Shown: positions 13,015 through 62,177, counted from the first letter of the stretch. The stretch is 64,000 bases of DNA from Poseidonia sp. (GCA_965661285.1 CBFIDD010000004.1:69042-133041), one strand, 5' to 3'. The notes: generated from the letters alone by a model not told the origin. Made by a program: numbers and translations.

Positions 13015-14603
13015 GGTGTAAGTTGACCCAGAAGGGCCTCAAGACGTAATTTTTCCTCCTTTGGAACACGGAATCTCACCCACGCTTTCCGAGCGTCGAC
13101 CCAAACATCCCATGCGAAAGCGAACGATTTTCCACTCGCCCAAAAAACAGGGAAGCAAAGAATGTACACGGCCATCAACCCGACCGCTGCGCTGCTGGTG
13201 CCCATACGGAGCCAGGTATCGGAAAAGCCGAGGACGTCCCCAACAGCACCATGATTGGCCCAAACCACCCAGGTCCACCCTAAGGCGATGAAGGGCCACA
13301 CGAGCATCGAGCCAAAGAACGACGCGAGAAACTGGTAGCTTGTTCTGGCATCAAGGCCCTCGTCGGTCGAATCACCGAGCAGGCGACCGAGGGCGATTTG
13401 GAAACCCAGTGAAGTGATTGAAAACGGCAACAACGCAAGAAAACAAAACAGGGCGACCATCGCCGAGGGCAGGCGGCTCATGTTGGCTCGGCGCAGCGGC
13501 CTTCCTTTTGGCCCGAGGTCCCGACCGTCCAATCCCCTTGTCTCAAGCAGTTCAGCCGCCTCTGAAGCGAGTTCGAATTGTTCACCGGCCAAGGGCTGTG
13601 GGGGGAACGTGTTTTCCCGCCCGGGCCATTCGTCCCGGACGGTTCTCGCCGCCAGCACCTCGGACGTCCAATCGGAGAGACGCTCGCCCTTGTGGCGGGC
13701 ACGGGCATGGGCGAGAAGATGGAGGGCGCGGTGTTCTTCCCACGTCGCGGTGTTGGGCGTCATGCTTGGAAGGCGGTCTTGCAGTTGGCCCCTGATGCGA
13801 TGAACCGTTTCTGCGGGTGGCTCAACCCATCCGCCTTCTCGAACGGCGTTGACCATGGCCTCTGGGATCTGGTCATCCTCAAGTCTGATGGGGTCGCCAA
13901 ACTCGATGAATTGGTCGGTTCGGAAGAGTTCTCTGCGACGGAAATGAAGACCCACGGGGACGAGGTGCGGGAGCGGTAAATCGTTGGCCTTCGCCAGTGC
14001 GGCTGCGGCAAGAACGGTGCGAATCGGCCCGGTTTTGAACCGGAGCATCGACGACTGACTGTGGCTCGTGCCCTCGGGGAACAAAACGCAACCAAAACCG
14101 TGGGCGATGCCGCTTGAAAGAGCGAGAAGTGAGCGCCCGTTCAACACCAACGCTTCCTCTTCGGTGCAACCGCCTCTGAGGAGTTCGGCCTTGCGCACGA
14201 CCGGTTGGACCGCAAGACGGCGGGTCCACCAGCCCAAGAGAGGGCGTGTCACCAAATCATGGCGAGCTCCAACGACGAATTCCTTGGGATGGTTGAGAAA
14301 AATACCGAGCGGGTCCATCAGTCCGTTGGTGTGCCAGCCGCAACACATGGCACCTGCGCCACCCACCTCGAGTGGCGTGGTGGATGACGAAGCCGTGGTT
14401 CGAAACTGAACGCTCGCAACGCGACGGCACATCCAGAACGCAATTTTCGTCCACAAAAACGAGCCCGGCACCGATGAATCGTAGGTTGGGAGTGGTGCGT
14501 TCAGAAGTTTGTCGATGTTCATCTTCTTCGCCGAGGCAGACAAAATCGGAAGGGCTTCGCCGTTGTGGATCATTTTCTCTTCTCCTGTGTCGATCGTGGC
14601 CAT
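13011..14603 (-). CDS. PlsC-family (lysophospholipid/glycerol-phosphate) acyltransferase with C-terminal TM helices
   Basis: HTNGLMD (HxNxxxD), FPEGTSH, FKTG, PVGL blocks; start at ATG 14603 overlapping the HIT stop (TGATG). Confidence 0.85.
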   Translation of the reverse strand: MATIDTGEEKMIHNGEALPILSASAKKMNIDKLLNAPLPTYDSSVPGSFLWTKIAFWMCRRVASVQFRTTASSSTTPLEVGGAGAMCCGWHTNGLMDPLGIFLNHPKEFVVGARHDLVTRPLLGWWTRRLAVQPVVRKAELLRGGCTEEEALVLNGRSLLALSSGIAHGFGCVLFPEGTSHSQSSMLRFKTGPIRTVLAAAALAKANDLPLPHLVPVGLHFRRRELFRTDQFIEFGDPIRLEDDQIPEAMVNAVREGGWVEPPAETVHRIRGQLQDRLPSMTPNTATWEEHRALHLLAHARARHKGERLSDWTSEVLAARTVRDEWPGRENTFPPQPLAGEQFELASEAAELLETRGLDGRDLGPKGRPLRRANMSRLPSAMVALFCFLALLPFSITSLGFQIALGRLLGDSTDEGLDARTSYQFLASFFGSMLVWPFIALGWTWVVWANHGAVGDVLGFSDTWLRMGTSSAAVGLMAVYILCFPVFWASGKSFAFAWDVWVDARKAWVRFRVPKEEKLRLEALLGQLTP

Positions 14604-15028
14604 CACTTCACACCCTGAAGTTCTGCGGCAAGGTCGGCCAGCGCGATGTGGTCCGCCTCGGAGACGGGGGTTTGAGGCCACATCGCCATGAGCGTGGAGC
14701 CACCATCGTGTGGTGTTCTTGGGAGGACATGAACGTGGACGTGAGGGACTTCCTGTCCTGCCAACGGCCCGTCGTGAATGCACACCGTGAAGTCCGTTGT
14801 CTCAAATCGCTGACCAAGGAGGCGTTGTACGGAGGAGACGCCCTCCATGAGTTGTGCTTGTTCTTGCCTGGTCAAATCTGCCAAACGTTGCACACCACGA
14901 ACAGGAATCACCAGGGTGTGCCCTTCTCTTCGCGGGAAGATGTCGAGAAAAGCGTACCACCCTTCTCCACTTGCGACACGATGCGAGGGAATGTCACCGG
15001 AGAGTATCTTCTCAAACAGCGTGGTCAT
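14603..15028 (-). CDS. HIT family nucleotide hydrolase
   Basis: TLFEKILSGDIP, AFLDIFP...GHTLVIP, GQEVPHVHVHVLPR. Confidence 0.93.
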   Translation of the reverse strand: MTTLFEKILSGDIPSHRVASGEGWYAFLDIFPRREGHTLVIPVRGVQRLADLTRQEQAQLMEGVSSVQRLLGQRFETTDFTVCIHDGPLAGQEVPHVHVHVLPRTPHDGGSTLMAMWPQTPVSEADHIALADLAAELQGVK

Positions 15029-23248: not shown

Positions 23249-26200
23249 TCACTCGTTCTCGCTGCCACGGCGGTTGCCGGCAAGTGCAGCAAGACCGATC
23301 ATCGCCATCACGGTGAGTGGCGAAACAAAGGGCAGGAGGCCTGCATCTTCAGCGATGTCTTCGGCCGTTTGTTCGCCGTCGTCGGTGGTTTCGCCACTGT
23401 TGTCGGTGGCGTCGCCGAGGCCGAGGTCAGAGGTGTCGGCACCTGCTTCCTCGAGGTCGGCCGCCAATTCGGACAGATCGTGGTTCTCAACGTCCACGAT
23501 GTCTTCGAGGTCGTCAAATTCAGCCATCTGTTCCTGAGCCTCTTGGGCGGGAACGCCGGTAATGTAGCGGATGCTGGCGAAGATCATGGGCAAGTCTTGG
23601 CTGTAGCCGGCCGTTTCTGGTCCAGCGATGACGTAGCCATTCCCGTCCTCGTCCCAAGCATAGACGCCAACACCAACGATGGTGGCGTGTTCGTTGCTCC
23701 AAAGCGGCGCCCACATACCGTCGGTGTAGGGGAAGACAGGGACTTCGTAATCCTCGTCGAGGTCTTGGAAGGTCATCTCGAGGTTGTTGCCGAAGTTCTC
23801 CAGCACGTTACTGAGGCCGGAATCGGCCAAAGCGCCGGCGATTTTCTCCATGCGCTCACTGACTTCTGGACCGTCTTCAACGGTCATGCAATCTTCGTAG
23901 GTATCGAAGGGTTCGGTTTCACCGTTCTCCACCAACTCCACGGAGAGGCAGTATTCGCCCTCTCCAGCAATGTCGACGAAGTTTTCGGTGGACACCTCGG
24001 ACTGGTCGTTAAACGCAACGCTGCCCTGGTCGATGACCGTGTTGTCGGCATCAGAAACAGCCCAATGCATCGTGATATCGTCGAAAGAATCGCTCCAGGT
24101 GCCTGCTCCCGCTGTGACACGGAGGGTGTTGTCGCCCTCGTTGTTCATGTTGCTCTCCCAGTCTCGGATTTCAGGTCCATTCCAGGTAGAATCGCAGGTT
24201 TCATCGGCGGAGACCAAGGTGGTGCCATCCGGAGCAGAGATGCTTGCCCCGACGCACATTGTGTTTTCACCGTATCCCATGTCGGCTGGAACGGTGGTTT
24301 CGACCGAGATGTAGCCGGAGTCGATGCTGATCGAAACATCGCAGGACCAGTCCGCACATGCCATCACATCATCCATTGAGGCAAGCACGGTGCCTTGACC
24401 GTCGTCCATGTAAGCGTCCATCATGAAGAAGGTGGCTTCCCCTTCGTCTTTGCCGTCTGCGCAGTCGACGGTACCGTCGTTCACGAGGGTAAAGTCCAGG
24501 TTCGTGTTGTAGTCGTCGCAGTAGAAATTTCCTGACTGGCGAGTGTCGTGTTCATCATCGCCATCCTCGCAATGCTGCGTGCCGTCATTGACATACTGGA
24601 ACGGAATGCGGTCGTAGTTTTCACAAAGGAACCAATCGCCGAGGTTGTCGGCTGGTTCATCCGAAGCATCAGCGCAGTCCACCGTGCCGTCGTTCACGAG
24701 TTCGAAGGAAATCTCAGAGCCGTCGAGGCAGACATAGGTGCTGGTGAGGCCGTTTTCGTATTCATCCGAACCATCGTCGCAGTCATCCCAATAATCGTTC
24801 ACATCGTCAATGGCCAGTTCTTGGTATTCACCGTCATAGTTGCACATGATGGTGGCCGATTCCTCAAATCCAAGGGCGGTAGCGTCAACACGTCCGTTGA
24901 AGCTGTAGTATTCTTCACCGGTGTTCCAGTCCTGGGAAGTCCCACCGCTGAGGTAGAAATCGTCCTCATCTGAACCGTCCATGCAGTCTTCGTTGCCGTT
25001 GTTCACATACCAGGATTCGATCATCTCACCACTGTCGCACATGAACCAGTTTTCACTGTCGTCGTAGTCCATGTCGCCCTCTTCGTTGCTGCCAAACCAA
25101 TCTTCGATGAGTTCTCCCACGGAGTCTTCAAGTTCGGCCTCGAAGTCTTCAGCCACAGCCTCGCCAAAGGATTCACTGGCGTGAACCAAAACGTTGCCCA
25201 TCATGATGAACATGACCGGGTTACCGGGCGGGCAGGTGTCGCAAGCCGTTACATCGAGCGTGTTTCCGTCTCCCAGGCTGACCTCGAGTGGTTCGTCGGT
25301 GCGCATGCTGAACGAGACATCATCCATGTCGGCTTCGCCTTCGTAGTCGCCTTCGCTGGTGAGTTCGTCGCTGATGCTGATGTCAAACTGACCCGCATCA
25401 AAGCCAAACTCTTCCATGGGCAGACCGGTCAAATAGACGTTGTAGTCGGCCGAGCCAATGTACGAGCCGTCGACCATGCCGCACATGTCGTAGACCTCGG
25501 CTTCGTCCGAGCCACCGACGCCATCGGTGTTGTCGCCAACGTCGTCGCTTTCCTCAACGCAATACCAATCGGTCCGGTCGTTGGCAGCAGCGGTGACGTA
25601 GATGGGGCTTGGGTTGCCAAGGCGCCATTCGGCCTGAGAAGCGATGGAGTAGCTGAAATCCATGCCGGTGTCGAAGTCAACGTTGAGTTCCTCGCCGTCG
25701 CCCTTGAGGGCAATATCAATGCCGAGGTTCATGTCGTTGCCGACGGTCATGTCAATGTCCATATCGGCGCCGACAAGTTGGTACTGGTCGTTGAGGTACT
25801 CGGTGTAGAGCATGTCCACGGTCAGCACGTTTTCGGCTTCCGCAAGGACGTCGATGTCAAACCCGGTGGGCTCGCTGCCAAAGGTGGTCTCCGACCAGTC
25901 GGTCATGATGACGGCGTTGGAAAGCAGGCCGTGGCGGAGGACGACATCGCTGGTACGGCTCCACACTTGGACATCGTTGCCTTCCAAGTCCTGAATGGTT
26001 TGAGGCGTGATGTCCTCGGTTTGGTGAATGTAGACATTGGAGGCGCCGGTGGTCAACTGACCGATATCAAGATTGAAACCGGCTTCATCGGCGTCGGCCA
26101 TGATTTCGGTGAACAATTCTTGGATGTCCAAGCCTGTCACGTTTTGGAGGTCGCTGTCAAGGCTTGACCAATCGTATTCCACGCCATAGTAGTACTCTGA

Positions 26201-26302
26201 TGGTTCGTCAGGGACGGCTTGGACCAGAGCAATGGGGGAAAGGGCGGTCAGCAACAACAGGGTTGCGAGCAGGCGGGCTGGGGTTCGTCGCGAGGTGGAC
26301 AT
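23249..26302 (-). CDS. Acidic surface protein with LDL-receptor class A-like repeats and PGF-CTERM-like sorting signal
   Basis: Signal peptide; five FxC...VNDGxxDCxDGSDE-type repeats; C-terminal LLPF + TM + NRR. Confidence 0.8.
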   Translation of the reverse strand: MSTSRRTPARLLATLLLLTALSPIALVQAVPDEPSEYYYGVEYDWSSLDSDLQNVTGLDIQELFTEIMADADEAGFNLDIGQLTTGASNVYIHQTEDITPQTIQDLEGNDVQVWSRTSDVVLRHGLLSNAVIMTDWSETTFGSEPTGFDIDVLAEAENVLTVDMLYTEYLNDQYQLVGADMDIDMTVGNDMNLGIDIALKGDGEELNVDFDTGMDFSYSIASQAEWRLGNPSPIYVTAAANDRTDWYCVEESDDVGDNTDGVGGSDEAEVYDMCGMVDGSYIGSADYNVYLTGLPMEEFGFDAGQFDISISDELTSEGDYEGEADMDDVSFSMRTDEPLEVSLGDGNTLDVTACDTCPPGNPVMFIMMGNVLVHASESFGEAVAEDFEAELEDSVGELIEDWFGSNEEGDMDYDDSENWFMCDSGEMIESWYVNNGNEDCMDGSDEDDFYLSGGTSQDWNTGEEYYSFNGRVDATALGFEESATIMCNYDGEYQELAIDDVNDYWDDCDDGSDEYENGLTSTYVCLDGSEISFELVNDGTVDCADASDEPADNLGDWFLCENYDRIPFQYVNDGTQHCEDGDDEHDTRQSGNFYCDDYNTNLDFTLVNDGTVDCADGKDEGEATFFMMDAYMDDGQGTVLASMDDVMACADWSCDVSISIDSGYISVETTVPADMGYGENTMCVGASISAPDGTTLVSADETCDSTWNGPEIRDWESNMNNEGDNTLRVTAGAGTWSDSFDDITMHWAVSDADNTVIDQGSVAFNDQSEVSTENFVDIAGEGEYCLSVELVENGETEPFDTYEDCMTVEDGPEVSERMEKIAGALADSGLSNVLENFGNNLEMTFQDLDEDYEVPVFPYTDGMWAPLWSNEHATIVGVGVYAWDEDGNGYVIAGPETAGYSQDLPMIFASIRYITGVPAQEAQEQMAEFDDLEDIVDVENHDLSELAADLEEAGADTSDLGLGDATDNSGETTDDGEQTAEDIAEDAGLLPFVSPLTVMAMIGLAALAGNRRGSENE
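24443..25048 (-). repeat. Five LDLa-like protein repeats
   Basis: EDCMDGSDE, DDCDDGSDE, VDCADASDE, QHCEDGDDE, VDCADGKDE. Confidence 0.85.
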
Positions 26303-26377
26303 CAGTACACCTACGGTTTTTTGTCCATATTAACTCTATTCTATTGGAATTCCCCTTCAATCGGGGCTTTCGTGTGT

Positions 26378-26923
26378 TCAGAATTTCCAAATTTTCTTCA
26401 TTTCATGGGTGTCACCGATGAAAATTTTCTTGGAGAATGGTTGTGAACACGCCTTTCTCATGGAGGTCATTTTTGCACCAACACTGTCCCCATCGAGGAT
26501 ATTTAGGAATTTCGTATGCTTATCTCCTGAAGATTTCAAGTAAGATTCTTGGCACTTGATGAAGTGATACACCTCTCTCATTGAACGAGTTTGCGCACCG
26601 CCGGTCCCAACGATCATTTTGAAGTTGACGAGGTATCGTATTTTTCCGACAAAAAATTCGCCATCAAAATCTTCCGTCCATTCAAATTCATCCGGTTCAC
26701 TGCTCGGCCGGGAAATTCTCTTGAGCTCGTGGGTTTCAAGATTTAGTCGTAAATTTGTTTTCCTACATTCTTCGCCCGTAATCTTTTCCAAGCACATTCT
26801 TTGCCATTTTTCTGTTTTTGATGAGGTCGCCCCCCCCATTGGCTTTCCACCGCCGATGATTTCTATTCGCCATTCTTTGGTCATTTTTTTACCCGGAATA
26901 AGGTCAATGAACTTAGCAGTCAT
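26378..26923 (-). CDS. Putative restriction endonuclease partner (hypothetical)
   Basis: AT-rich, Lys-rich, ATGA-coupled to the methyltransferase; possible PD-(D/E)xK-like EDFDG...VNFK. Confidence 0.5.
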   Translation of the reverse strand: MTAKFIDLIPGKKMTKEWRIEIIGGGKPMGGATSSKTEKWQRMCLEKITGEECRKTNLRLNLETHELKRISRPSSEPDEFEWTEDFDGEFFVGKIRYLVNFKMIVGTGGAQTRSMREVYHFIKCQESYLKSSGDKHTKFLNILDGDSVGAKMTSMRKACSQPFSKKIFIGDTHEMKKIWKF

Positions 26924-27993
26924 GTATAATCCCTTAGTCCTCTATTATTGATTTGGCATCTAAGTGCTTCATTGAATATTTTTCGGGCGAGTTTGTAGTC
27001 AAGTCGTCTTCGTCGCTCACCCGTTTTGGTGTTGCCCATGAAGGCCGTCAAAAAGACATCGTGCGTGGCTTCACGGTATTCATCAATGCGTCGATTCGCT
27101 TCCGCGATGACACTGTCGAGTAAATCGCCTTCAAATTCAATTTCAATGTAGGTCAAATGTCGGCTGCTCACTTTGATGTTGCTCCGGTCATAACCCAGTT
27201 CCTCGCCCCGACAGAATTTGATGCGCATGCTTCCGTCTTCTCGGGTCCCGTCGACAGCTCGGTAGCCGAGCGTTCCATCAGGTGCGTTGAATTTCATGTG
27301 TGTCAAATTAGATGGCCCCTTTGCGGTTTGGTTGTGGACGCGTCGGAGTTCATCGTACTTTCCAAGGAGTGTGTCGTTTTTCCACACCTCTTTCAACGGG
27401 TTTGAGGTTGAGAAAACCATGACGCAGACGGGATGTTCTGTATCATCAAACGGGTTATCTTCGAGAATCGTAACTGAATGAAGTCGGTCTTTCCAATGGG
27501 GTAAATCATCCAAATCTTGGATGCCGGATTCGGGGACAATCCAAACTGAATCATCGTATTTTGCTATGGTTTGCTCAATGGCCAGTTTGAACAAGTCGTC
27601 CAAAACATTCAGCCGCGAATCATCAAGGGTGGGAATGAAGCCTGGAGAAAAATACTCCACCATGGGTGATTTGATTCGTTTCGCCGAATTTTTGGCCAGA
27701 TAGGGAGGATTGGTGAGGACGAATGCTCTTTCATGGACGAGAACACGACGGATGGAATCGTTTGGTTTTCCCCATTCTTTGGTGTCGCATATCTCTTGAT
27801 CAATATCATGGCCGAGAACGTGATACCCCATATCACTGGCCAGTTCAAGGAGGTGCCCATCACCAGCAAATGGGTCAACGCACACGGTGTATCGTTCACT
27901 TAAGGCTTCAATGTGAGCCCGGATATGGGGGCGCAGCCAGACAGAATCACGTGTGAAAAACTGACCGAGGTCTCGTTTGCTCTTCTCCGACAT
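26920..27993 (-). CDS. Amino-DNA (N6-adenine) methyltransferase, gamma-class motif order
   Basis: LGQFFT (motif X), DPFAGDG (motif I), TNPPY (motif IV). Confidence 0.85.
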   Translation of the reverse strand: MSEKSKRDLGQFFTRDSVWLRPHIRAHIEALSERYTVCVDPFAGDGHLLELASDMGYHVLGHDIDQEICDTKEWGKPNDSIRRVLVHERAFVLTNPPYLAKNSAKRIKSPMVEYFSPGFIPTLDDSRLNVLDDLFKLAIEQTIAKYDDSVWIVPESGIQDLDDLPHWKDRLHSVTILEDNPFDDTEHPVCVMVFSTSNPLKEVWKNDTLLGKYDELRRVHNQTAKGPSNLTHMKFNAPDGTLGYRAVDGTREDGSMRIKFCRGEELGYDRSNIKVSSRHLTYIEIEFEGDLLDSVIAEANRRIDEYREATHDVFLTAFMGNTKTGERRRRLDYKLARKIFNEALRCQINNRGLRDYT

Positions 27994-28038
27994 GGTATCG
28001 ACCTATCCATGTCAACAGTACATAACCAATGTTCACCA

Positions 28039-51391: not shown

Positions 51392-52132
51392 TTGAGCAAT
51401 GAAGACCGAGGAATTTTGATCGCCGTCGAAGGCATGGACGGCAGTGGAAAATCCACGCAGGCCATGCTCCTGTTCAACTGGATACATGCCCTCGGCCTTC
51501 CCGTCCACCACACCGAATGGAACTCCAGCCCCGTTGTCGCAGCAGCAACCAAGGTCGGAAAAGATACCAAGCGGTTGAAACCGTTGACCTTCCATCTCAT
51601 TCACGCCGCTGATTTCGCAGACCGATGGAGCAAACAAATTGAGCCCATGCTCGAGGTGGGTGGCATCGTCATTTGCGACCGATACAAGTTTACTGCGATG
51701 GCTCGTGATGGGGCGCGAGGCGTTGAGAGAACCACCATTGAGGGAAATTATTCCTATGCGCGAGAGCCTGACATTACCCTGTATTTTGATATCCCGCCCG
51801 AGGTGGGTTACGACCGAATCGTGACGGGCCGACCAACGCTGAAGTTTTACGAGGCCGGACTCGACATGGGGTGGACGTTTGACCCGTTCGAATCCTACAA
51901 AATTCTCCAAGGAAAAATCAAGGACGTCTATGACGGGTTGGTCAGCGAGGAACGTATTGTCCGAGTGGATGCCATGGGGACGGTTGCCGAGGTTCAAACT
52001 CGGGTTCGTGCACTGATTTCCGAACACATCGACTTCAGCAGCATTGACCCCATTGATGAAAACGACCGGACCGCCGAAATGATTCGTATGTCATCGTTTG
52101 ACTGGGGTGCGCTTGAGGAGGACGAAGTATGA
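51392..52132 (+). CDS. Thymidylate-kinase-like protein; candidate PPK3 catalytic subunit
   Basis: Intact P-loop EGMDGSGKST, TEWNSS, HAADFADR, ICDRY, KFYEAGLD. Confidence 0.8.
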   Translation: MSNEDRGILIAVEGMDGSGKSTQAMLLFNWIHALGLPVHHTEWNSSPVVAAATKVGKDTKRLKPLTFHLIHAADFADRWSKQIEPMLEVGGIVICDRYKFTAMARDGARGVERTTIEGNYSYAREPDITLYFDIPPEVGYDRIVTGRPTLKFYEAGLDMGWTFDPFESYKILQGKIKDVYDGLVSEERIVRVDAMGTVAEVQTRVRALISEHIDFSSIDPIDENDRTAEMIRMSSFDWGALEEDEV

Positions 52133-52800
52133 CAACCGAAGGCAAGCTCATCGTGATCGAAGGACCCGACCACGTCGGCCGCTCCATGCACACTCGTTTG
52201 CTGAGTGAGCGACTCAAAGCTCATGGCGTCGCCGTTTCCATCGTCGGTCTCGCCCGCTCAACGCTGTTAGCAGGCCTCATCAAGAGTTCGAACACGGCGC
52301 TGCATCAACTGAATTGGAGGACACGAGCCTTGCTTTACGCAACCGACCTTCACGACCAGTACATCCACCAAATCCAACCCCTTCTGGCGGCCGGTTTCGT
52401 CGTCATCGCCGACCGCTATACGATGACACCGCTGATTCGAGAATCCATTCGCGGCGGCGACGAAGACTGGATTCGTGGTTTGTACAGCGACCTACCTCAA
52501 CCCGATGTAACCGTGGTGCTCCAAGCCGGTGGTCGCCGCCTGCTCAACCGCATGATGTACAACGAATCGCTAACCAAACTCAACCACTACGAAGCCGGTG
52601 CCGATATGGCCCTCTCGCCCTCCATCACCCGATCGTTTTTGGAATACCAAAAACTCCTTCGAAAGGCCTTCATGGACAAGGCGGACCAAAGCGGCTATCC
52701 CATCATTCACACACGCGAGAAAGTCGAGGATGTTCACGCAGCGATTTGGACGCACGTCAAACCGTGCGTGGCTGACATGCTCCAATCCATCAAGAAATGA
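52129..52800 (+). CDS. Thymidylate-kinase-like paralog with degenerate P-loop; candidate PPK3 partner subunit
   Basis: EGPDHVGRS (Lys to Arg), LYATDLHDQ, IADRY, HYEAGAD; ATGA-coupled to the upstream gene. Confidence 0.8.
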   Translation: MTTEGKLIVIEGPDHVGRSMHTRLLSERLKAHGVAVSIVGLARSTLLAGLIKSSNTALHQLNWRTRALLYATDLHDQYIHQIQPLLAAGFVVIADRYTMTPLIRESIRGGDEDWIRGLYSDLPQPDVTVVLQAGGRRLLNRMMYNESLTKLNHYEAGADMALSPSITRSFLEYQKLLRKAFMDKADQSGYPIIHTREKVEDVHAAIWTHVKPCVADMLQSIKK

Positions 52801-53245
52801 GCGACGACAACGGTATTCTCAACTGCGGGATTTCAACATCAATGCAATGTTTTGATGACTTGGGCTTCATAAGAAGACTGTTCGTGGCCATCTGCACCAC
52901 CAACGCCTTGCTGACGGATTTCGCAGGAGCAGGGGGCCACGCCTCCACTGCAATGCGTTCATCGTCCTGATAGTCAAACACGAGGGCGGGTACGCGCTTC
53001 AATCCCAAACGGAGGCTGGCTTGATGCCGGTGATGGCCGTCGAGTATCGTCATGGTTTTTCGGTCAACAAGCAACGGCTTGTGAAAGAAACCGTTGCGTT
53101 GAATTTTTTCAGTCATCTCCTCAACGCGCCAGGGGAGGGTTTGTTCATGAGGCCGCAGCCGACCGACATCCACAAATTCCCACGACATGGAAGCCAGTGG
53201 GAGAAGGCCGTTGATAGCCCTTCGGTTTGCCGGTGGTGCCATCAT
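52790..53245 (-). CDS. Stand-alone ParB/Srx N-terminal domain protein
   Basis: LRPHEQ, PLLVD, ILDGHHR, RVPA; no HTH; ATGA overlap with the glycosyltransferase (alternative start 53188). Confidence 0.8.
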   Translation of the reverse strand: MMAPPANRRAINGLLPLASMSWEFVDVGRLRPHEQTLPWRVEEMTEKIQRNGFFHKPLLVDRKTMTILDGHHRHQASLRLGLKRVPALVFDYQDDERIAVEAWPPAPAKSVSKALVVQMATNSLLMKPKSSKHCIDVEIPQLRIPLSSLIS

Positions 53246-54366
53246 CCGCCGGCGGCCAATTCAAGACGGTGGTGAGGTGCGTCAACGCTCGGCTGATGGT
53301 CGCGAAGTTGGTTCAAAAACGAGCAAATAATCTCTACAGCTTGTTGGCAGCCGTTCTGTATGATTGGGCGGGGCCCGGGCGCTTTCAGCCGCTGAAGGAC
53401 CTCGTCGAGTTGAGCGGTGGACGTTGAACGAGGATGAACGACTTCAACATGTGGAAAGGTGTTGGTCGCCAGCGCACCGTTGATTTCCTGTTCGACTTGC
53501 CCGGGTTCCGGGAAACAAAGTGAAGGGAGACCGAGACAGCCGACCTCGCCGAGCAGTTGCGTACCAGCGGTTTGAACAATCCAATCCGCAGTCACCAAAT
53601 CTTCGATGAATCCATCGTTGGAAATGGGTCGAACCTCCACGTTTGCAGGTACCTCGTCGGGGTAGTGCCCGTAGAGTTTGAGCATCAAACCGTGTGATTC
53701 CGCATGCGAAGCAAGGGCAGGCAGATGGTGCAGCACGCTGTGACGGAGATATGCGATGGCGTGGGTGCCTGCCGGGCGCCATGAATCCATGGTAAACTCA
53801 GGGCGAAGCATCGGGCCGAGGAGATGTGCAGATGGTTTGTTGGCCTCCAAATTGAAGCCTTTTGAGACGAGACTGAGGTCGGGGCGGGGAGCAAAGACAC
53901 GACACATGATTTTGATTGGAAGGAGTTTCAATCGCTGCCTTCGATTCAGGAGATGCTTCAATTTCGCATCGATTGCAAATCGTTGAGAATTAAAGGAAAT
54001 TAACGGCACACCGAGGCGGCGTGCAACACCTGCAAAGGTGGGTTCAAAATCGGTGATCAAGGCGTCTGGGCCCCATGTGCGAAGCTGTTCAATGGCGGCC
54101 TTTCGTCGTTGACGATGTCCGAGAAAAAAACGCAGAGATCCCAAGCCCGTACGGAGATAGGACACACGATTTCGCACGATGACAAACCTTGGTGTTTCAA
54201 GATGGTGCACCGCTTCTTCGCCAAAACGTTCTCGAAGAAGGTCAATAGCATCACCGCACGTGAAAAACATCACTTCGTGCCCTTGGGCGATGAGCCCATC
54301 GGCGAGTGTGAGGGCTCGCGTGGTGTGACCTCGGCCCTCGCCTGCAAGCGCGTAAGCGATCTTCAA
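53242..54366 (-). CDS. GT-B glycosyltransferase (MJ1255/VC2487, GT28-like)
   Basis: KIAYALAGEGRGHTTR, PDALITDFEP, GPMLR, TAGTQLLGE, PGQVEQEING; TTG start overlapping the upstream stop. Confidence 0.85.
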   Translation of the reverse strand: MKIAYALAGEGRGHTTRALTLADGLIAQGHEVMFFTCGDAIDLLRERFGEEAVHHLETPRFVIVRNRVSYLRTGLGSLRFFLGHRQRRKAAIEQLRTWGPDALITDFEPTFAGVARRLGVPLISFNSQRFAIDAKLKHLLNRRQRLKLLPIKIMCRVFAPRPDLSLVSKGFNLEANKPSAHLLGPMLRPEFTMDSWRPAGTHAIAYLRHSVLHHLPALASHAESHGLMLKLYGHYPDEVPANVEVRPISNDGFIEDLVTADWIVQTAGTQLLGEVGCLGLPSLCFPEPGQVEQEINGALATNTFPHVEVVHPRSTSTAQLDEVLQRLKAPGPRPIIQNGCQQAVEIICSFLNQLRDHQPSVDAPHHRLELAAGG

Positions 54367-55217
54367 GCCAAGGCCTCCATGAGCCTTGATGAAGCATTCT
54401 CGAGCGCCAACGGGGGTTCCACCTCTGCCAGTCGCTGCGCTGCGCGGGTTCGCAAGGCCTGAATGGTGGACGTCGATGGAGCGTAGTGGAGAATGCCCAT
54501 CGTGCCGTCCATGGCTTCCGTTGTGGCGGTACAGGATTCCACCCAATCGCCGTCGTTCCAGTACTCAATCCCGTTGATGGTTCGAAATTCGGCACGATGA
54601 ATATGGCCACAGACGACCCCATTATAGCCTGCTCGTTGGGCGGCCTCGGTCACGGTTTCAGCGAACCTTCGGTAGGTTTTGCTGCTCTTTTGCAGTGCCC
54701 GCCTCGCAGCCGCAGCCAACGACCACGGTCGCATCCCCAAGCGATGGCGTACCCAAGCGACGGGGCGATTTAATTTCATCAGAAACTGACAGGCGATGTG
54801 CCCGAGATGGCACAACATTTTGCTGTGGCGCATGAACAAATCAAACTCATCGCCGTGAATCACCCACAAACGACGACCGTCTGCCGTGGTGTGCACTGCG
54901 TCTCGTTGGACCGAAATCCCATTGATGGAGGCATTGGCCCAAGCTCGAAAACTGTCGTCGTGGTTTCCAGGGATGTAAATCACATTGGTGCCGCGTTCGG
55001 CCTTCTGCATCAGGTTCCGGAGAATGTTGTCGCAGTCTTCGTTCCACGACCATTTGCGCCCCAAAACCCACTGGTCGATGATGTCGCCGACAAGATAGAT
55101 CGTTTCGGCGTCGTGGGTCTCAAGAAAAGCAAGCAGTTCAGCGGATTTGACGCCGTTAAGCCCAAGATGCCAGTCAGAGAGGAAGAGCGTCCGGTAATGT
55201 TCGGTCGAAACGTCCAG
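54363..55217 (-). CDS. PlcP/LpxH-like calcineurin-fold metallophosphoesterase
   Basis: In-frame SDWHLG and LVGDIID upstream of the track start, then PGNHD, IHGDEFD, VCGHIH, NDGDWVES; start taken as CTG 55217. Confidence 0.82.
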   Translation of the reverse strand: MDVSTEHYRTLFLSDWHLGLNGVKSAELLAFLETHDAETIYLVGDIIDQWVLGRKWSWNEDCDNILRNLMQKAERGTNVIYIPGNHDDSFRAWANASINGISVQRDAVHTTADGRRLWVIHGDEFDLFMRHSKMLCHLGHIACQFLMKLNRPVAWVRHRLGMRPWSLAAAARRALQKSSKTYRRFAETVTEAAQRAGYNGVVCGHIHRAEFRTINGIEYWNDGDWVESCTATTEAMDGTMGILHYAPSTSTIQALRTRAAQRLAEVEPPLALENASSRLMEALA

Positions 55218-55300
55218 ATGCTCCCCTCAACTCGCAGAGGGTTCAGAAGGCAATAGTGTCGTCGGAGGAATATTGTGTATGCCTATAGAGAGATATGGAT

Positions 55301-56482
55301 TCAACCGAAACGACCTGAGACATACCGAGCGGTTAATTCCTCTTTCGGATCGCCAAAAATCTTGGCCGTCTTGTCAAATTCAATCAAGCGACCGAGGTAC
55401 ATGAAGCCCGTGTAGTCGCTGACACGCTGAGCCTGTGACATCGAGTGGGTGACGATCACGACGGTGAAGTGCTTTTTCAGTTCAAGAATAAGTTCCTCGA
55501 TTTTTGCCGTAGCGATGGGGTCCAAAGCGGAACACGGCTCGTCCATCAAAATCACCTCTGGTTCAACTGCGATCGTTCGCGCAATGCACAGGCGCTGCTG
55601 TTGGCCGCCCGAAAGACTGGTGCCCAGCTCGTGGAGCCGATCGTTCACTTCCTCCCAAATCGCCGCTCGTTTCAGCGACTCCTCGACAATCCGGTCAAGT
55701 TCGCGCCGGCTCGGCGTGTAGTGAAGTCGAACCCCGTAGGCCACGTTGTCGTAGATGGATTTTGGAAACGGGTTGGGCTTTTGGAACACCATCCCAACAC
55801 GGCGACGGATGGTCACCAAATCAGCACCGCGCCCCATTATTTCCTCACCATCAAGTTCAATCGACCCGTCGATTTTGCAGATTGGAATAAGGTCGTTCAT
55901 CCGATTCAAGCATCGCAAAAGCGTGGATTTACCGCAACCAGACGGTCCAATCAACGCCGTGACAGCGTTGCGCTGGAACGGAATGGATACGTTGTAAATC
56001 GCCTGGGCGCTACCGTAGTGCAAATCCATGTTTTTGATCCACATATGGGGGTCGCCGTCGATGTCCAGTTGGTCGGTGGAGTCAGGGATAACATCGTCAC
56101 CTCCATGTTCGGCTTCATCGACGAGTGGGGCGTCTGCTGCTGCGTCGGAATCGGTTACTGACTCGGTGGAATCTTGCGACTGTTCGGCCTCGGATTCATC
56201 CTCCGTAGCGTCCCCGGCGCCTTCGTCGGCCGAGGATGCCTTCAACTCGTCCATCATCGTCTTGATGAGTGCGGATTCGGAGGAGGCGTTCTCCCCGTCA
56301 TCGGCCGACAGTGACGTGAGCACGCTCATGGCTTCTGCATGACCGATGCCGTCCTTGCCATCGAACGCCTGTTCGAGCACCTCTTTCCGTTGTTCTTCGA
56401 TATTCTCAACCGCGCCATCACCTTCAATGAGGCGGTCGATCATCGTGTTCAATTGTTCCAAGGATACGCTGTTGTTCGTCAT
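55301..56482 (-). CDS. pstB: Phosphate ABC transporter ATPase with acidic N-terminal extension
   Basis: [52 protein letters not shown]; ATG 56482 overlaps the pstA stop. Confidence 0.95.
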
Positions 56483-59400
56483 GTCTTCGAATACCTCCTG
56501 AAGTGGGCGCGGAGAAGGATAGCTGCTGAATTGACGACGACCAGGGTGCCAAGCAAGACCAATGAGGCCCCTGCCGCAGCGACTTTGAAACCGATGGCCG
56601 GCATGTCGGTCCAACGGTACACTTGCACGGGAAGGACCGTGTAGAAGCCACGGTCGTTGGAGTCTGGGCCGACGTACTCTGAGGGGTCCGAAGAGAAGGG
56701 TCCCCGGTCCGCCCAAAGCGGTATGTTTTGGAGGTAGGGCTCAATGCCAGGGAACCATGCGAAAAGACCGTCCAGTGAAGGCGTGACTTGGTAGGATACA
56801 TAGAAGAAAGCATCCGGTTCGGTGAACACCGATGCGACGGCTCCGACCAAAATGAGTGGCGCAGCCTCGCCCATAATGCGGGACATGGCGAGGATGGTCC
56901 CTGTCATCATCCCGGGCATGGCGTGAGGAAGAACGTGGTCTTTGGTCACTTGCCATTTCGTGCAACCCAAACCAAAGGCGCCGTTTCGCAAGGAGGGTGG
57001 CACGGCTCGAAGAGCCTCTTGAGAAGAGATGACAATGGTTGGCATGGCCATGGTGGCCATGGTCATCCCGGCCGTCATGACGGTTCCGCCAAGGCCCAAT
57101 CCAATACCACGATCGGTCAAGAACATGGCGAGCCCGAACAGACCGAAGACAATGGCTGGGACACCAGCGAGGTTCGTGATGAGGGCTTGGATGGTCCGGC
57201 GCAATCGGTTGTTTGGAGCGTATTCCTCCAACCAAATAGCGGCACCGATGGAGAGCGGTATGGCGAACAGCATCGTGTAGCCCACCACGTAGACACTGCC
57301 CCAAAACGCTGCACGCAGGCCGGCCTTGTAGGGTTCGGACGACGTGAAGTCAGACCAAACAAACGGGATGTGAATGGACATTGGAATGGAGACAAGCGCA
57401 ATCGTCAACGCCACGAGGCTGGCGGTGATCCATCCTTGACGACCTTTGACCACCAATTTCAATCGGTCAAACTGGATGTTCTCCGTTCTGGTCAACTGCA
57501 AGCCAGCGAGCACCAATCGTTTGATTCCGGACATGATCATCAGCAAGGTGACGGCGCCGATGAGCCATCCTTCAACGAGCACCCAGTGAAGCGCGATGTA
57601 GATCATGAGGCCACTGAACAACAGCAGGCCAAGATCGACGAGCCCGTCCGATCGAGGGACGCGGGTCTCCGGGCGAATGCCAAGAATCTCTGTGACCGAG
57701 ACAAGGAGCGCAATCCCTGACATGACCATCACGGCGCCGCCGATGGTGAAGGTAAACGGTATCAGCAGTGTTTGTTGGTTTTCAGCAAAGGTGCTGAAGA
57801 AGAGGGAGGCGCTGAGCACGAAGAAACCAAGACGGAACCCAATGCCAACCAAGCGGCCGATGAGTTCCGTAGCAAACGAACACCACGACCACGGCGTCAT
57901 GACATCCTCGTCGTGCTCATCGCTTCCGAGTGACAAAAACATCGCGCGCAATCGCATCAAAAGTGCATTTGGCTTTCGCATGATGAGGAGCATCCCGACC
58001 AAGCTCAGCATGCTGAGCATTGGAAGCACCGGATCTCGTTCTTCGAACATGGCCTCGCCAGACTCGAATCGCTCAGGAGCTGCGCATTTTTCCAACCACA
58101 TAAGTTGGTCGAGATAGCGGACCTGATCGCACCATGCTTGGGCTGTCGTGGGAGGCGTGTCGGTCATGGCTCGGGCTTGTTCGCAATCAAACGCTGCAAA
58201 GGAAGGGTCGTTGGCTTTGTAATTCTCTCCGCACTTGAGAGTCGCAAGTTCGCTGGCATGCGTCCACAACTCAGGGACGTCCGCCAGTGATTCTGCACCC
58301 GCAAACGCGTCTTCAGCAGAATGACCTTGCCCGTCGATGAGGTTGGGTACACCGTCTCCGTCGATATCACGGTCGTTGACGCCGTCGTGCACGCCGTCCT
58401 CGTTTTCGTCGTTCGCTGAGACCCACGCCGAATAACTCAACGGTTCAGAAGGATCTGCATACCGGCCTTCACCCGGGCAATGCTCTGGATGGCCTTGCAC
58501 AGGATTCTCATCGTTGTCTGCGTCAATGTCGTCATCACAAACGTCGATGATGCCGTCGTTGTCAAGGTCCTGGTCGTTCACAAATCGGAACTGAAACCAA
58601 TCGGCAGGACTGCCAAGAGCAAACCCTCCGATTTCATTGTACGATGTTTCGCGTGCATCACCTGGTGGCCCTTCGGTTTGAAGGTATGTTACGGTGTAGT
58701 TCATCGTGTGGCTGATGAAGAGCCAGTTGGTGCTCAAGCCGCCCGAGGGTTGCAATTCAACATGGTGCTGGTCAAAGTCACCGTCGACGATGGAGACGAA
58801 GGCCGCTGATTCCCCTCCGCTGGTGATGGCGACGGTCAGTTCAATCGTACGAGAACGACCTGAATCAGCCGTGGTTTCGATGGAATAGCCGTTCTCGTTC
58901 GTGAATTCGCCAATGACCGCAGCACCCACCTGTCCCGATGTCAAAATATATGCCGATGTTTCGGCTTTGGTACAGAATTCTGGAACAAACGATTCAATGC
59001 TTTCCTGTGGTTTGAGGAGGGCCTCAGGAACATCAGCGGGAGAGACCGGCGTCCATGAACGGGTGGTTTTGTTGTACATGCTGGCTTCCTCAATGGTTGA
59101 GAACGAAGCAATGCCGGTCGCCGTTCGGTTCAGCCACAAATCGCCATCGCCTCGGAACAGCGGTTCAACGGGCGTGTAGTGAATCCAAAGTTTGCCGTCC
59201 GCAAACGCCTCTGGATGCGGAGCGATGAAGTCGAGCACGTTGGCGAGGAAGGCGTCGTTGTTCGCTGACTCCCACCTGAGGCCTTTCCAGACCCATCGGC
59301 TTCCGTCATCGCTATCGACCCAAAAATCACCCATCCCCGGTGTTGGCGCAGCAGACCGGTTGAAGATGTTGATACGCGTTGATGAGCCGGTGTCGTAGGC

Positions 59401-59985
59401 GAGACCAGCTTGTTCCTCACCCGGGAGAAGGTCAAAGATGGACCACGGTTCGACCGGTTTGTACGTTGTCGGTGCCAAACCGGCATCGCACAACGCTCGC
59501 TCAAGGTCTTCCTCCAAGTCAAACGTGCTCTCTCCAGACAACGATACAAATCGTTCTCCATCATCGTTAAACGCCTCAAACGAGGTCTCAACCCACGACG
59601 CTTCGATGGTCACGTTGGAGCGTGATTGACGCAAATCATCCTCTGCCCACGAAGGGTTGTAAGTTTCCGCCTTCCACGAAAGTTGCGTTTGTGCAACCGT
59701 CTTGGTGGGATAGCGAACACCGTCAACCTCAATTTCTTCCTCGGGGACAAACGCCTCTTCGGAGATTTGTGTAAGCAAGGTGATGAGGGCGATACCGCAC
59801 ATCACGGCGATGGAAACAAAGACGCCCTTGCCTATTTTTGCAGACATGTAGCGTCGGGAAAGTGAGCGTTTTGGCAGGTGAATGGTGCCAAAGAGGCTCG
59901 GCCGATCGCTGGTAGCGTTTTCCTTCTTCGTGTCATCCTTCGCCTCGTCCTGAGGCTCGAATACTTGCTCGGTGGATTCGCTCAA
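56479..59985 (-). CDS. pstA: Phosphate ABC permease PstA with very large insertion
   Basis: C-terminal [46 protein letters not shown]; 1168 aa. Confidence 0.9.
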
Positions 59986-62177
59986 TCGTACGCCTCCCGA
60001 AAGCGAGTCATGATCTTGTGGCCGACCATGTTGAGCCCAAGCGTGATGGCAAAGAGATAGAGCCCTACAGCGAACAGGGAATAGTACGGCGTGGTACCAA
60101 TGGGAAGTTCGCCACCGATACGTTGAGCGATGTAGGCGGTCATGGTTTGAGCCGACCGGAACATGTTGTCCGAATAGGTCGCCAAGGTCCCAACCGAGAG
60201 GGTGACCGCCATGGTCTCACCAATCGCTCGGGAAAGAGCGAGGATGATCGAGGCGAGGATGCCAGAAAGAGCGGAGGGCATGGTGACACGTGCCGTGGTT
60301 TCCGTGGTGGTGGCTCCAAGAGCGTAGGAGGCTTGTCGAAGGCTATCGGGAACAGCACGAAGGGCATCTTCGGACAGGGAAGCGATCAGTGGTGTGATCA
60401 TGATGCCGACCACAATGGCCCCGTTGAGCGGGTTGAACAATTGTGGTTCTTCTGCAATCCACCCCCGCTCCAAAAAGACCGTTCCAAGGTCGACCACCAA
60501 AGGAGCGATGACGACGAAGGCAAAGAACCCGTAAACGACAGAGGGGATGCCGGCCAACAGTTCCAAAATGGGTTTCACGATGTTGGCCGTCCTCGGACTG
60601 GCGTATTCGGAGAGGAACACCGCGGTACCCAAGCCGATGGGGATGGCGACGACCAAGGCGCCCAAAGCGACTTGGAGCGTGGTTTGCAACAACGAATTCA
60701 CACCCATGTGAAGGTCGGAGGTCACCGTGACGGTTTCACCAGCGGAGCGCACATCTGTTTTCCACCATGTTTGGGTGAAGAACTCGCCCAAAGACCCGTT
60801 CACACGAGCGACGACATCGAAATACATCAGGGCAAATGTGACGATGACGACCAGGTAAAGAATGGCCTTCGTATCACCATCGATGGTGGCGAAACGGGTG
60901 GTTCCAGCTTGGTTTCGTGAGTCTGACATAGCGGTTGTCAAGGCGATGAACGAGAGTGCCAGCGCAATGGTGTGCCCGGTTTGAACAGAATAAAACTCGA
61001 AGATAACGAGGAACAGGGAGAGTGCAGCGATACAAGCAATCGATACCGGAATTTTCCGGTCGAGCCGCCAACCAAAAGCAACCAGAATCAAACACACCAC
61101 ACAGAGAAGAATCAACACGCTCGCCTGCGGCGGAGCAATCAGGGACATGAACCCAATGATGGTCAGCACCAAGGCGTTCAATCGAAGAGCAGGCGTCCAG
61201 CGATCAATGCGTTCAACCGGCATGGATTGGAGCCACTGAGGACAGAGAAGCGTTGCGATCACAATCAAAAGCGTGAGAAGGCCCAAAAACAGGCCCACCG
61301 CATCAGAGTTTGGATTGTAGATGTCCTTATCGTATGGATTCGGGATTCCGTCGCCGTCAATGTCTTCGTCAAGGTAATTGGGGATGTTATCCCCGTCAAT
61401 GTCGTTGTCGAGGAGGGTCCCTGCGCCGTCAACGGCATCGTTCGCAACGCCGTCTTCATCAACGTCTTCCTGAGCAGTGTCGTTCCAAACCCAGAGCGTG
61501 ACCCACCATTCACGGGCGAGTTCTGGATTCTGTTCATGAAGGGTGAGGGCCCCCTCGTTTTCGTAAATCAAACTTAGCGGAACTTTCGGATAGGCTTCAT
61601 CCCACATGGTGGGATTCGCCTCAAAGTATTCCGCAAGATAGGTACGATCCGAGTCTAACGCAGGGCCTGTCGTACTGGTGCCGTCCGATTGAGAGAACGT
61701 TGAGCCTACGCGATCACTGTTATCAGTGTAGGTCTGCGTGTCCTCGTCCCATTCAAAACGGTCGATGAACGGTTCAGCCAGAACGACCTCATGGTCCATG
61801 TTCCAATCAACAATGCAGAACGCATCGAGCCACAGCGGGTCTGAAAGTTTGCCGTCATCATAGATGGCGGCCTCTTTGATTCCAGCTTTGACATCCTCGT
61901 GCCAGTCTTGTGGCGGTTTGTAAGCGTCAACGCCGCATCCAAATCCTCTGTAGAACTTGGAACCAGACTCGAAAAGGACGAACACGATGCCGGCTGTGAT
62001 CATGATCACAGTGGCAGCCAAGGCAAAGAGAACAACTCCAGGAGCAGCCTCCTCCACACGCCCACGCCAGCGCATGGACCCCGCACCACCAGATTTGGAT
62101 CGTCGGGGACCATTGGAAGCGGCGGCGGATGTTGCCGTACTCTGAGATTCCTTCGGACTGTCTTCGACAGACATCAC
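59982..62177 (-). CDS. pstC: Phosphate ABC permease PstC with large insertion
   Basis: TAVFLSEYA, KPILELLAGIPSVVYGFF, SEDALRAVP, SRAIGETMAV; 731 aa. Confidence 0.92.
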   Translation of the reverse strand: MMSVEDSPKESQSTATSAAASNGPRRSKSGGAGSMRWRGRVEEAAPGVVLFALAATVIMITAGIVFVLFESGSKFYRGFGCGVDAYKPPQDWHEDVKAGIKEAAIYDDGKLSDPLWLDAFCIVDWNMDHEVVLAEPFIDRFEWDEDTQTYTDNSDRVGSTFSQSDGTSTTGPALDSDRTYLAEYFEANPTMWDEAYPKVPLSLIYENEGALTLHEQNPELAREWWVTLWVWNDTAQEDVDEDGVANDAVDGAGTLLDNDIDGDNIPNYLDEDIDGDGIPNPYDKDIYNPNSDAVGLFLGLLTLLIVIATLLCPQWLQSMPVERIDRWTPALRLNALVLTIIGFMSLIAPPQASVLILLCVVCLILVAFGWRLDRKIPVSIACIAALSLFLVIFEFYSVQTGHTIALALSFIALTTAMSDSRNQAGTTRFATIDGDTKAILYLVVIVTFALMYFDVVARVNGSLGEFFTQTWWKTDVRSAGETVTVTSDLHMGVNSLLQTTLQVALGALVVAIPIGLGTAVFLSEYASPRTANIVKPILELLAGIPSVVYGFFAFVVIAPLVVDLGTVFLERGWIAEEPQLFNPLNGAIVVGIMITPLIASLSEDALRAVPDSLRQASYALGATTTETTARVTMPSALSGILASIILALSRAIGETMAVTLSVGTLATYSDNMFRSAQTMTAYIAQRIGGELPIGTTPYYSLFAVGLYLFAITLGLNMVGHKIMTRFREAYD

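Follow-up and report, generated by a model that had tools for sequence, protein, structure and literature searches.

Phospholipid-to-glycolipid replacement is a major phosphorus saving in marine bacteria and algae. Marine Group II archaea are an abundant group without cultured members, and to our knowledge their membrane lipids are not known. Here we describe a locus of a Marine Group II archaeon, contained in a stretch of 64,000 nucleotides from a Poseidonia sp. genome (GCA_965661285.1, CBFIDD010000004.1:69042-133041; hereafter the window), in which the gene for a PlcP-like metallophosphoesterase (gene 1) is followed immediately by the gene for a glycosyltransferase (gene 2), directly behind the phosphate uptake genes pstSCAB. 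In our judgement this locus is probably a two-gene module for lipid head-group replacement (remodelling), and its sequences fit best with an archaeal form of the bacterial PlcP route in which a non-homologous transferase would act instead of Agt.

The closest known system is formed by the PlcP-Agt operons of bacteria (S. meliloti SMc00171; Phaeobacter MED193_17359; SAR11 PB7211_983/960; P. aeruginosa PA3219/PA3218). According to Sebastian et al. (PMC4796936), the neighbour seen most often beside plcP is a gene for a putative glycosyltransferase, a homologue of agt; the enzymes Agt and GTcp belong to GT4 and are marked by the motifs GRVAxEKN and FPSxTDTFG (PMC8231724). In bacteria, characterised PlcP works on lipids of the cell itself (PMC4796936). 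For one archaeon, too, a shift towards glycolipids has been documented when nutrients are limiting, with no enzymes assigned to it (PMC4302986). We found no paper that assigns a PlcP route to an archaeon, with the proviso that supplementary tables of the PlcP papers may list such matches; the word "archaea" does not occur in Sebastian et al. (PMC4796936) or in the Ocean Gene Atlas case study (PMC6030836), supplementary tables apart.

Pairing, location, and distribution of the gene pair

Both genes lie on the minus strand. Gene 1 (positions 54363 to 55217, 284 amino acids, with a probable CTG start) appears to code for a PlcP-like metallophosphoesterase, as judged from its Metallophos match, its failure on the LpxH models, its bacterial relatives, and a structure model. 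Gene 2 (positions 53242 to 54366, 374 amino acids, TTG start) is a GT-B glycosyltransferase of family PF13528 related to MJ1255/VC2487, an assignment based on Pfam, on TIGR00661, and on a structure model. On this strand the order is pstS, pstC, pstA, pstB, a spacer of 83 nucleotides, gene 1, gene 2, and gene 3, the last of which codes for a ParB/Srx-fold protein and is discussed below with the other neighbours. The TTG of gene 2 at 54366 is part of a TTGA overlap with the stop of gene 1, and the homologues of gene 2 share this starting point, opening with MKIAYALAGEGRGH; gene 3 starts at ATG 53245, within an ATGA overlap with gene 2. A preliminary description of this stretch, made from the sequence alone, had pointed out three genes with these two overlaps just downstream of pstB, and we confirmed both the overlaps and the distance of 83 nucleotides between the pstB stop and the CTG of gene 1.

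A match to gene 1 (E ≤1e-10) was found in 16 of the 201 genomes of the order, G000 included, and in every one of these carriers (the window and 15 of 15 relatives) gene 2 directly follows gene 1, so the pairing of phosphoesterase and glycosyltransferase proposed in the preliminary description is general among them. Among the 61 genomes with a completeness of 90% or more there are 9 carriers; overall, carriers belong to 6 of the 24 genera, with 11 of 99 genomes in family f1, 1 of 2 in f2, and 3 of 99 in f3. Gene 2 has a match in a somewhat larger set (24/201), with distant copies, 33 to 36% identical, in genomes that lack gene 1. In a sample of 401 genomes from the phylum, gene 1 was present in 10, all of families f1 and f3, and in none of the 306 genomes sampled from other families.

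The placement right behind the pst genes, also remarked on in the preliminary description, holds for the window and for six relatives (L018, L019, L020, L026, L027, and L028), that is, for 7 of the 16 loci. A pstS-like gene lies near the pair in L022 and L031. In the genome G182, a cluster of genes on the same strand runs in the order pstSCAB, plcP, the transferase, a second pstS, genes with LTD domains, a gene for a phytase-like protein of 1488 amino acids, and finally the ParB-like gene. In this stretch (L130, G182:C6:174000-190000) the genes from plcP to that of the 1488-amino-acid protein, which resembles choice-of-anchor-I and phytase proteins, make up a variable island between the tmk/ParB block and pstSCAB.

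The genome to which the window belongs comprises 1,977,581 bases in 8 contigs (93.23% complete, 0.08% contamination), with the window on contig C4, and the host lineage, Poseidoniaceae, belongs to Marine Group II. Archaeal markers are found in the window itself, with matches to both the A and B subunits of topoisomerase VI, an RFC-like AAA protein, RpoP, a geranylgeranyl-reductase domain, and a TYW2 domain, and gene 1 is 91% identical to the copy in a locus of a metagenome-assembled genome named 'Candidatus Poseidoniaceae archaeon'. The junctions between pstB and gene 1 and between gene 1, the glycosyltransferase, and the ParB-like gene are bridged by contigs of three other sequencing runs, each from another study (X3, 54434-56359 and 52700-54463; X4, 54434-55711; X7, 52942-54545). 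As these independent contigs span the junctions and other genomes show an identical gene order, the locus is not an artefact of assembly.

Gene 1 codes for a PlcP-like phosphoesterase

Gene 1 codes for a calcineurin-type phosphoesterase (PF00149, Metallophos, 45.5 bits against a cut-off of 21.5). The four motifs that the preliminary description had quoted for this protein were all found, HTTADGRR at residue 109, HGDEFD at 121, WSL at 165, and NDGDWVES at 221. An alignment of 24 sequences shows the DxH, GD, GNHD, HGD, and GHIH motifs to be invariant, together with the metal-site residues D15, H17, D45, N85, H86, H121, H205, and H207. In the AlphaFold model (pLDDT 84.3), residues 127-195 form a helical insert in addition to the metallophosphoesterase core, and the structures ranked 1 to 25 by Foldseek are all LpxH, the UDP-2,3-diacylglucosamine diphosphatase of lipid A synthesis (E of around 1e-10, template modelling [TM] scores of 0.47-0.64). 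Solved LpxH chains also match by sequence, at an E value of about 1e-6 and about 20% identity. Neither a membrane-spanning segment nor a signal-like stretch could be found in the protein, the highest Kyte-Doolittle mean over 19 residues being 0.80.

Despite this fold, gene 1 does not score as an LpxH. It scores far below the cut-offs of the LpxH models, with 46.6-46.8 bits against 134 for NF003743 and 40.2 bits against 190.35 for TIGR01854. The same contrast can be seen between paralogues, as each of five bacterial genomes searched, all holding a relative, has one LpxH copy that reaches 224-298 bits on NF003743 and a second copy with only 43-50 bits. In a quick IQ-TREE tree of 101 rows (16 archaeal, 79 bacterial, and 6 LpxH, including that of E. 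coli), the six LpxH rows are separated with a support of 100 in the SH-like approximate likelihood ratio test (SH-aLRT) by a branch of length 5, the longest in the tree, and the 16 archaeal rows are united with a support of 99. On these sequence comparisons gene 1 is PlcP-like and not LpxH. The preliminary description had reached the same opinion, regarding a true LpxH role as implausible; the model scores, the two-copy contrast, and the tree, in which gene 1 groups with the non-LpxH copies, all bear it out.

Gene 1 has a very large number of relatives, at least 8000 proteins at E ≤0.001 in a protein search. The top matches are unnamed marine proteins (52-89% identity), followed by bacterial proteins of 45-50% identity (E of around 1e-72) from Erythrobacter, Novosphingopyxis, Croceicoccus, Sphingomonas, Polaromonas, and Comamonadaceae, most of them labelled LpxH. 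A scan of named genomes gave at least 602 stretches, 594 of which were confirmed, and the best 80, one archaeal and 79 bacterial loci, were retained, which makes for a narrow bacterial sample. Within these best 80 of 594, the 79 bacterial loci are 42-49% identical to gene 1 and come from Sphingomonadales, Burkholderiales, Acetobacterales, Rhodospirillales, and others. An open reading frame (ORF) directly downstream of the match was picked in 75 of the 80 loci (74 of them bacterial) and none in the other five. The GT4 set of PF13439, PF00534, and PF13692 is present in 50 of the 74 bacterial downstream ORFs, the other 24 having other families or none, some of them perhaps as wrongly picked frames. 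The bacterial relatives of gene 1 thus appear to be, for the most part, the plcP of plcP-agt operons.

Regarding the origin of gene 1, the quick tree put the archaeal clade among the bacterial rows with supports of 85, 81, and 85. When the 79 bacterial rows were kept as a single group, the log-likelihood exceeded that of this free quick tree by 11.6 units, with a p-AU of 0.778 in the approximately unbiased (AU) test. Nesting of the archaeal PlcP clade inside the bacteria was rejected as unsupported by this test, and for that reason we name no donor lineage. The distribution of the gene, patchy in one archaeal order, not found elsewhere in the phylum sample, and very common in bacteria, points to a transfer and suggests that gene 1 is probably of bacterial origin.

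Gene 2 codes for a PF13528 glycosyltransferase

The best Pfam match of gene 2 is PF13528 (140.1 bits against a cut-off of 25), and it obtains 75 bits against a cut-off of 195.9 on TIGR00661, the model of MJ1255/VC2487. Judged by these scores, it is a member of PF13528 and a relative, not a member, of the TIGR00661 subfamily. PF13439 gives only 32.6 bits, and PF00534 gives no match. The Agt strings GRVA and FPS, the only two searched for, are absent from gene 2, and a tblastn search with gene 2 against the 79 bacterial plcP loci (from the best 80) gave no match at E ≤1e-3. Together, the PF13528 best match, the missing Agt strings, and the 0/79 result rule out the identification of gene 2 as a bacterial Agt of the GT4 type.

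By sequence, gene 2 has no match in the PDB at E ≤0.1. Its structure model (pLDDT 89.2) adopts a GT-B fold, for which Foldseek gives GT1 enzymes and MurG as the best matches (E of 1e-14 to 1e-12, TM scores of 0.52-0.66, identity of 13-19%). The GT1 matches are the kitacinnamycin glycosyltransferase, OleD/OleI, UGT109A1, YjiC, YojK, and the calicheamicin glycosyltransferases, enzymes with lipophilic acceptors. Invariant residues of gene 2 are G11, G13, H14, and R17 at the N-terminal side and E274, P286, E287, E292, Q293, and N296 in the C-terminal domain. The families that gene 2 resembles invert the anomeric carbon, and by analogy gene 2 is probably inverting as well.

A search for homologues of gene 2 recovered 54 proteins among 6807 candidates, the named ones being from Poseidoniaceae, Poseidoniales, or Thermoplasmatota, plus a single one labelled 'Flavobacteriales bacterium'. 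The latter protein (P0160) matches the L031 transferase with 100% identity, and as L031 has the pst/tmk order of the archaea, the label is probably a binning error. Transfer of the pair en bloc from Bacteroidota, an idea that rested on this probably misbinned protein, was dropped. The wider PF13528 family is common in bacteria, according to the Atlas listing.

Start codon and upstream region of gene 1

The frame of gene 1 on the minus strand is open from a stop at 55227-55229 to the TGA at 54363-54365, and it contains no ATG, GTG, or TTG before the catalytic DxH motif, which is why a mechanical list of ORFs gives only a piece of 233 amino acids starting at TTG 55064. The preliminary description had placed the end of the gene at 55217, and this coordinate corresponds to a CTG codon (55215-55217). 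The aligned start codon of the relatives is TTG in L018, L019, L021, and L023, GTG in L022, and ATG in L024 and L025, while L020 (G066:C58) is a second genome with the same CTG. We take CTG 55217 as the probable start of gene 1; it would be either a rare start codon or the mark of a weakened gene. No variant was seen at 55215-55217 in the displayed rows of other runs, which, with 139 rows undisplayed, does not settle the CTG.

The spacer between pstB and gene 1 (positions 55218 to 55300, minus strand, 83 nucleotides) contains a TATA-like CTCTATAG and a GAGGGGA motif similar to a ribosome-binding site, and both recur in relatives. Reading the alignments by eye, GAGGGGA is kept 5-7 nucleotides upstream of the start codon and a CTCTATAG-like box about 60-70 nucleotides upstream of it, and both are also found upstream of gene 1 in loci that are not beside pstB. 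No motif of at least 9 nucleotides is common to the upstream regions of pstS and gene 1.

Proposed function and alternative explanations

We propose that the product of gene 1, as a cytoplasmic two-metal phosphoesterase with the LpxH fold, would cut the phospho-head group off membrane glycerophospholipids, giving a diradylglycerol and a soluble phospho-alcohol with reusable phosphate. The product of gene 2, a predicted soluble GT-B enzyme, would then move a sugar from a nucleotide sugar onto the freed glycerol hydroxyl, and the result would be a glycolipid free of phosphorus. Since the pair lies behind pstSCAB with its own promoter-like spacer, it most likely serves under phosphate scarcity. 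A PlcP of probable bacterial origin would have been combined here with a transferase seen only in Poseidoniales and standing in Agt's place, and the ParB/Srx gene, co-transcribed by position, would remain outside the module.

Of the other explanations, the one that survives best, although we consider it unlikely, is a constitutive glycolipid route, where the phosphoesterase supplies the free diradylglycerol (archaeol-like or similar to diacylglycerol) required by any glycolipid synthase and the pair builds the normal membrane glycolipids of the carriers. The TATA-like box kept before gene 1 in loci away from pst, the 7 of 16 loci without a pst gene in the stretch read, and the lack of a common motif upstream of pstS and gene 1 would all fit such a route. 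However, the pair is accessory, being present in only 16 of 201 genomes, and cannot be the general route; moreover, it lies directly after pstB in 7 of 16 loci, and in G182 it is clustered with pstS2 and the gene for a phytase-like protein.

Slightly less probable than a constitutive route is a substrate other than the bulk membrane lipids. The phosphoesterase could act on a sugar linked to polyprenyl-(pyro)phosphate or to a nucleotide, and a MurG-like transferase could build a surface glycan. MurG is indeed among the best fold matches of gene 2, gene 1 has its closest solved fold in LpxH, which is a pyrophosphatase, and a homologue of gene 2 (47% identical) lies beside PMT_2 and Polysacc_synt genes in a genome, G104, where no PlcP was found. 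Against this, gene 1 scores far below the LpxH cut-offs and groups with the bacterial PlcP-like copies, its bacterial relatives are in plcP-agt operons, and the operon in the window has no other gene for glycan synthesis.

We give even less weight to the scavenging of foreign phospholipids from sea water, with the phosphoesterase harvesting phosphate and the transferase detoxifying or recycling diacylglycerol. The pair does adjoin phosphate uptake genes, and an enzyme of bacterial type would suit the ester lipids of bacteria or algae, but no signal peptide or membrane anchor was found in gene 1, no lipid importer is seen in the operon, and the characterised bacterial PlcP works on the cell's own lipids (PMC4796936). 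Finally, bacterial contamination or a chimeric assembly could be suspected because gene 1 has only bacteria among its nearest named relatives and because one transferase is labelled 'Flavobacteriales bacterium'. This explanation can practically be dismissed, as several genomes show the order pstB-plcP-GT-(ParB)-tmk2-tmk1 with flanks that are archaeal, the junctions are spanned by contigs from three other studies, the region has an even GC content, and the 'Flavobacteriales' protein is identical to the transferase of a locus with archaeal order.

Several observations weigh against the remodelling module that we favour. The placement of gene 1 with PlcP derives from operon context and the contrast between paralogues. 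Sebastian et al. defined PlcP by a BLASTP E value of <1e-40 to the characterised MED193 protein (PMC4796936); as a proxy, gene 1 reaches an E value of about 1e-72 to the Erythrobacter, Sphingomonas, and Comamonadaceae homologues. The nesting of the archaeal clade inside bacteria found no support, as described above. For the transferase, which occupies the place where a plcP operon would have a gene for a phosphorus-free lipid (agt, pgt, or btaAB), no characterised member of PF13528, and hence no characterised lipid synthase of this family, was found in the literature (searched for MJ1255, PF13528, and TIGR00661). Its family need not be specific to lipids, because the G104 homologue sits by polysaccharide genes in a genome (87% complete) in which no PlcP was found; there, the 47%-identical gene lies across the tmk pair, next to PMT_2 and Polysacc_synt/polysaccharide-export genes (L129, G104:C16:34000-47966). 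As for control by phosphate, the seven loci without a pst gene in the stretch read are L021, L023, L024, L025, L029, L030, and L032, of which L021 and L029 are short contigs, and no RNA run was found to contain the locus. Last, translation of gene 1 may be weak, given its CTG at a codon that is TTG, GTG, or ATG in relatives.

Lipid genes of the host

The lipids on which the remodelling module would act depend on the host, whose lipid genes are of a mixed kind. No match to glycerol-1-phosphate (G1P) dehydrogenase (PF13685) was found in this genome, which is 93% complete, while GGGP synthase, CarS, and a GpsA-like protein all have matches. One CDP-alcohol transferase was found, with archaetidylinositol-phosphate synthase as its best model (94 bits against a cut-off of 180). 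A weak PlsC-like acyltransferase of 590 amino acids is coded at positions 13011-14783 of the window (PF01553, 29.5 bits; TIGR00530, 20.7 bits against 102.95), and this protein is the bacterial-like acyltransferase to which the preliminary description alluded. Marine Group II archaea have been described as lacking G1P dehydrogenase and keeping archaeal ether-lipid genes together with bacterial-like acyl genes, with membranes that are possibly chimeric (PMC6962369). With such a mixture of genes, the substrate of gene 1 may be an ether, an ester, or a mixed lipid.

A more far-reaching proposal, which we put forward tentatively and regard as doubtful, is that Marine Group II membranes are built on bacterial-handed sn-glycerol-3-phosphate glycerophospholipids, and that this is the reason why a PlcP could have been recruited and kept until reaching about 45% identity. 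With a lineage-specific inverting transferase, it would make beta-glycosyl diradylglycerols, and these would be the long-sought and as yet unrecognised signature lipids of phosphate-starved Marine Group II cells. If this bacterial-handed reading were true, these would be the first enzymes of head-group remodelling in any archaeon, and they would offer a handle on the 'lipid divide'. Genes 1 and 2 represent two expressible enzymes whose preference of substrate (ester or ether, sn-3 or sn-1) would reveal the make-up of Marine Group II membranes, and the locus points to a glycolipid worth seeking in phosphate-poor seas.

Gene 3 and neighbouring genes

(i) Gene 3. Gene 3 (positions 52790 to 53245, minus strand) codes for a ParB/Srx-fold protein of 151 amino acids similar to the N-terminal domain of SerK, as shown by its ParB_N match (29.5 bits, no further domain), by its score on the SerK model NF053625 (61.4 bits against 380, residues 16-115 aligning to positions 10-112 of the 244 of the model), and by its PDB matches, which cover the N-terminal domain only (1vk1, E of 2e-15; 5x0b, E of 1e-13). 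Its end reaches 11 nucleotides into the convergent tmk2. A ParB/Spo0J partition protein was discarded, as the protein has only 151 amino acids and no further domain and fails TIGR00180 (26 bits against 58.45). Salvage of phosphoserine was also dropped, given the tmk neighbour, the missing SerK C-terminal domain, and the inositol-type appearance of the only CDP-alcohol transferase.

Of the 201 genomes searched in the order, 200 have a paralogue of gene 3 that is about 40% identical and about 140-150 amino acids long; the copy in the operon represents a second paralogue, restricted to a subset. Eight loci around the second paralogue were read, seven of them in genomes that gave no match to PlcP and the eighth in G182, where it lies about 9 kb from plcP; it is beside tmk1-tmk2 in six of the eight and not in the other two. 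Directly after gene 2, gene 3 is found only in the window, L018, L019, L020, and L022. Gene 3 therefore goes with the tmk pair as a resident gene and stands outside the module, because it sits by tmk1-tmk2 without plcP and is missing from most plcP-GT loci, and the three-gene ParB-Srx module of the preliminary description has to be reduced to two genes. From the contexts of the second paralogue, we interpret the plcP-GT pair as an insertion that separates pstB from a resident ParB-like/tmk block. The second paralogue also adjoins a gene with a rhodanese domain twice (L129 and L134).

(ii) tmk genes. On the plus strand and convergent on gene 3, the tandem dTMP-kinase-like genes tmk1 and tmk2 (positions 51392 to 52800) both match Thymidylate_kin. 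The two overlap, are about 30% identical to each other, and are near or just under the TIGR00041 cut-off, and they are conserved with the ParB/Srx gene across Poseidoniales.

(iii) Phosphate transporter. The pst genes are all on the minus strand. The pstB gene (positions 55301 to 56482) reaches 387.5 bits on TIGR00972 (cut-off 343.2) over residues 225-471 of a long ORF, and its ATG at 56482 overlaps the pstA stop. Upstream lie the pstA-like permease (positions 56479 to 59985, 1168 amino acids, BPD_transp_1 at residues 910-1057), the pstC-like permease (positions 59982 to 62177, 731 amino acids, BPD_transp_1 at residues 512-712), and the pstS-like binding protein (from position 62402 to the window end at 64000 and continuing beyond it, 1164 amino acids in the genome), which has a PBP_like_2 match. 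The three last proteins are very large, with the permease or binding domain at the C-terminal end only, and they carry long Asp-rich inserts; PstB has an acidic N-terminal extension of about 145 amino acids.

(iv) Region of low GC content. At positions 26001-28000 of the window the GC content dips to 0.473, compared with about 0.57 elsewhere. The dip spans two ORFs, 26378-26923 and 26920-27993, both without a Pfam match, and may correspond to a foreign insert.

Comparison with known systems

Gene 1 has in common with LpxH its metal-binding motifs and its fold, down to the helical insert that covers the metal site, and differs from it in being only about 20% identical to the solved chains and under both model cut-offs. 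Like gene 2, MurG and the GT1 UDP-glycosyltransferases are GT-B enzymes with an N-terminal Gly-rich loop containing a His (GEGRGH in gene 2) and a C-terminal region that in gene 2 reads TAGxQ...PE..EQ..NA, although the identity is as low as 13-19%. Gene 3 keeps the N-terminal domain of SerK (ADP-dependent L-serine kinase) and SbnI, with the PHEQ and DGHHR stretches, the Glu of PHEQ being the catalytic base of SerK; in contrast to the 242 amino acids of SerK, it has only 151 and no C-terminal domain.

As a system, the locus is closest to the PlcP-Agt operons, with which it has in common a non-LpxH phosphoesterase of LpxH-like appearance immediately upstream of a glycosyltransferase, a setting related to phosphate, and an accessory gene with patchy occurrence. 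It differs from them in its archaeal host, to which the bacterial Pho box does not apply, in the lipid substrate, which in an archaeon may be ether or mixed, and in the transferase, which is a PF13528 protein similar to GT1 and GT28 enzymes instead of a GT4 Agt.

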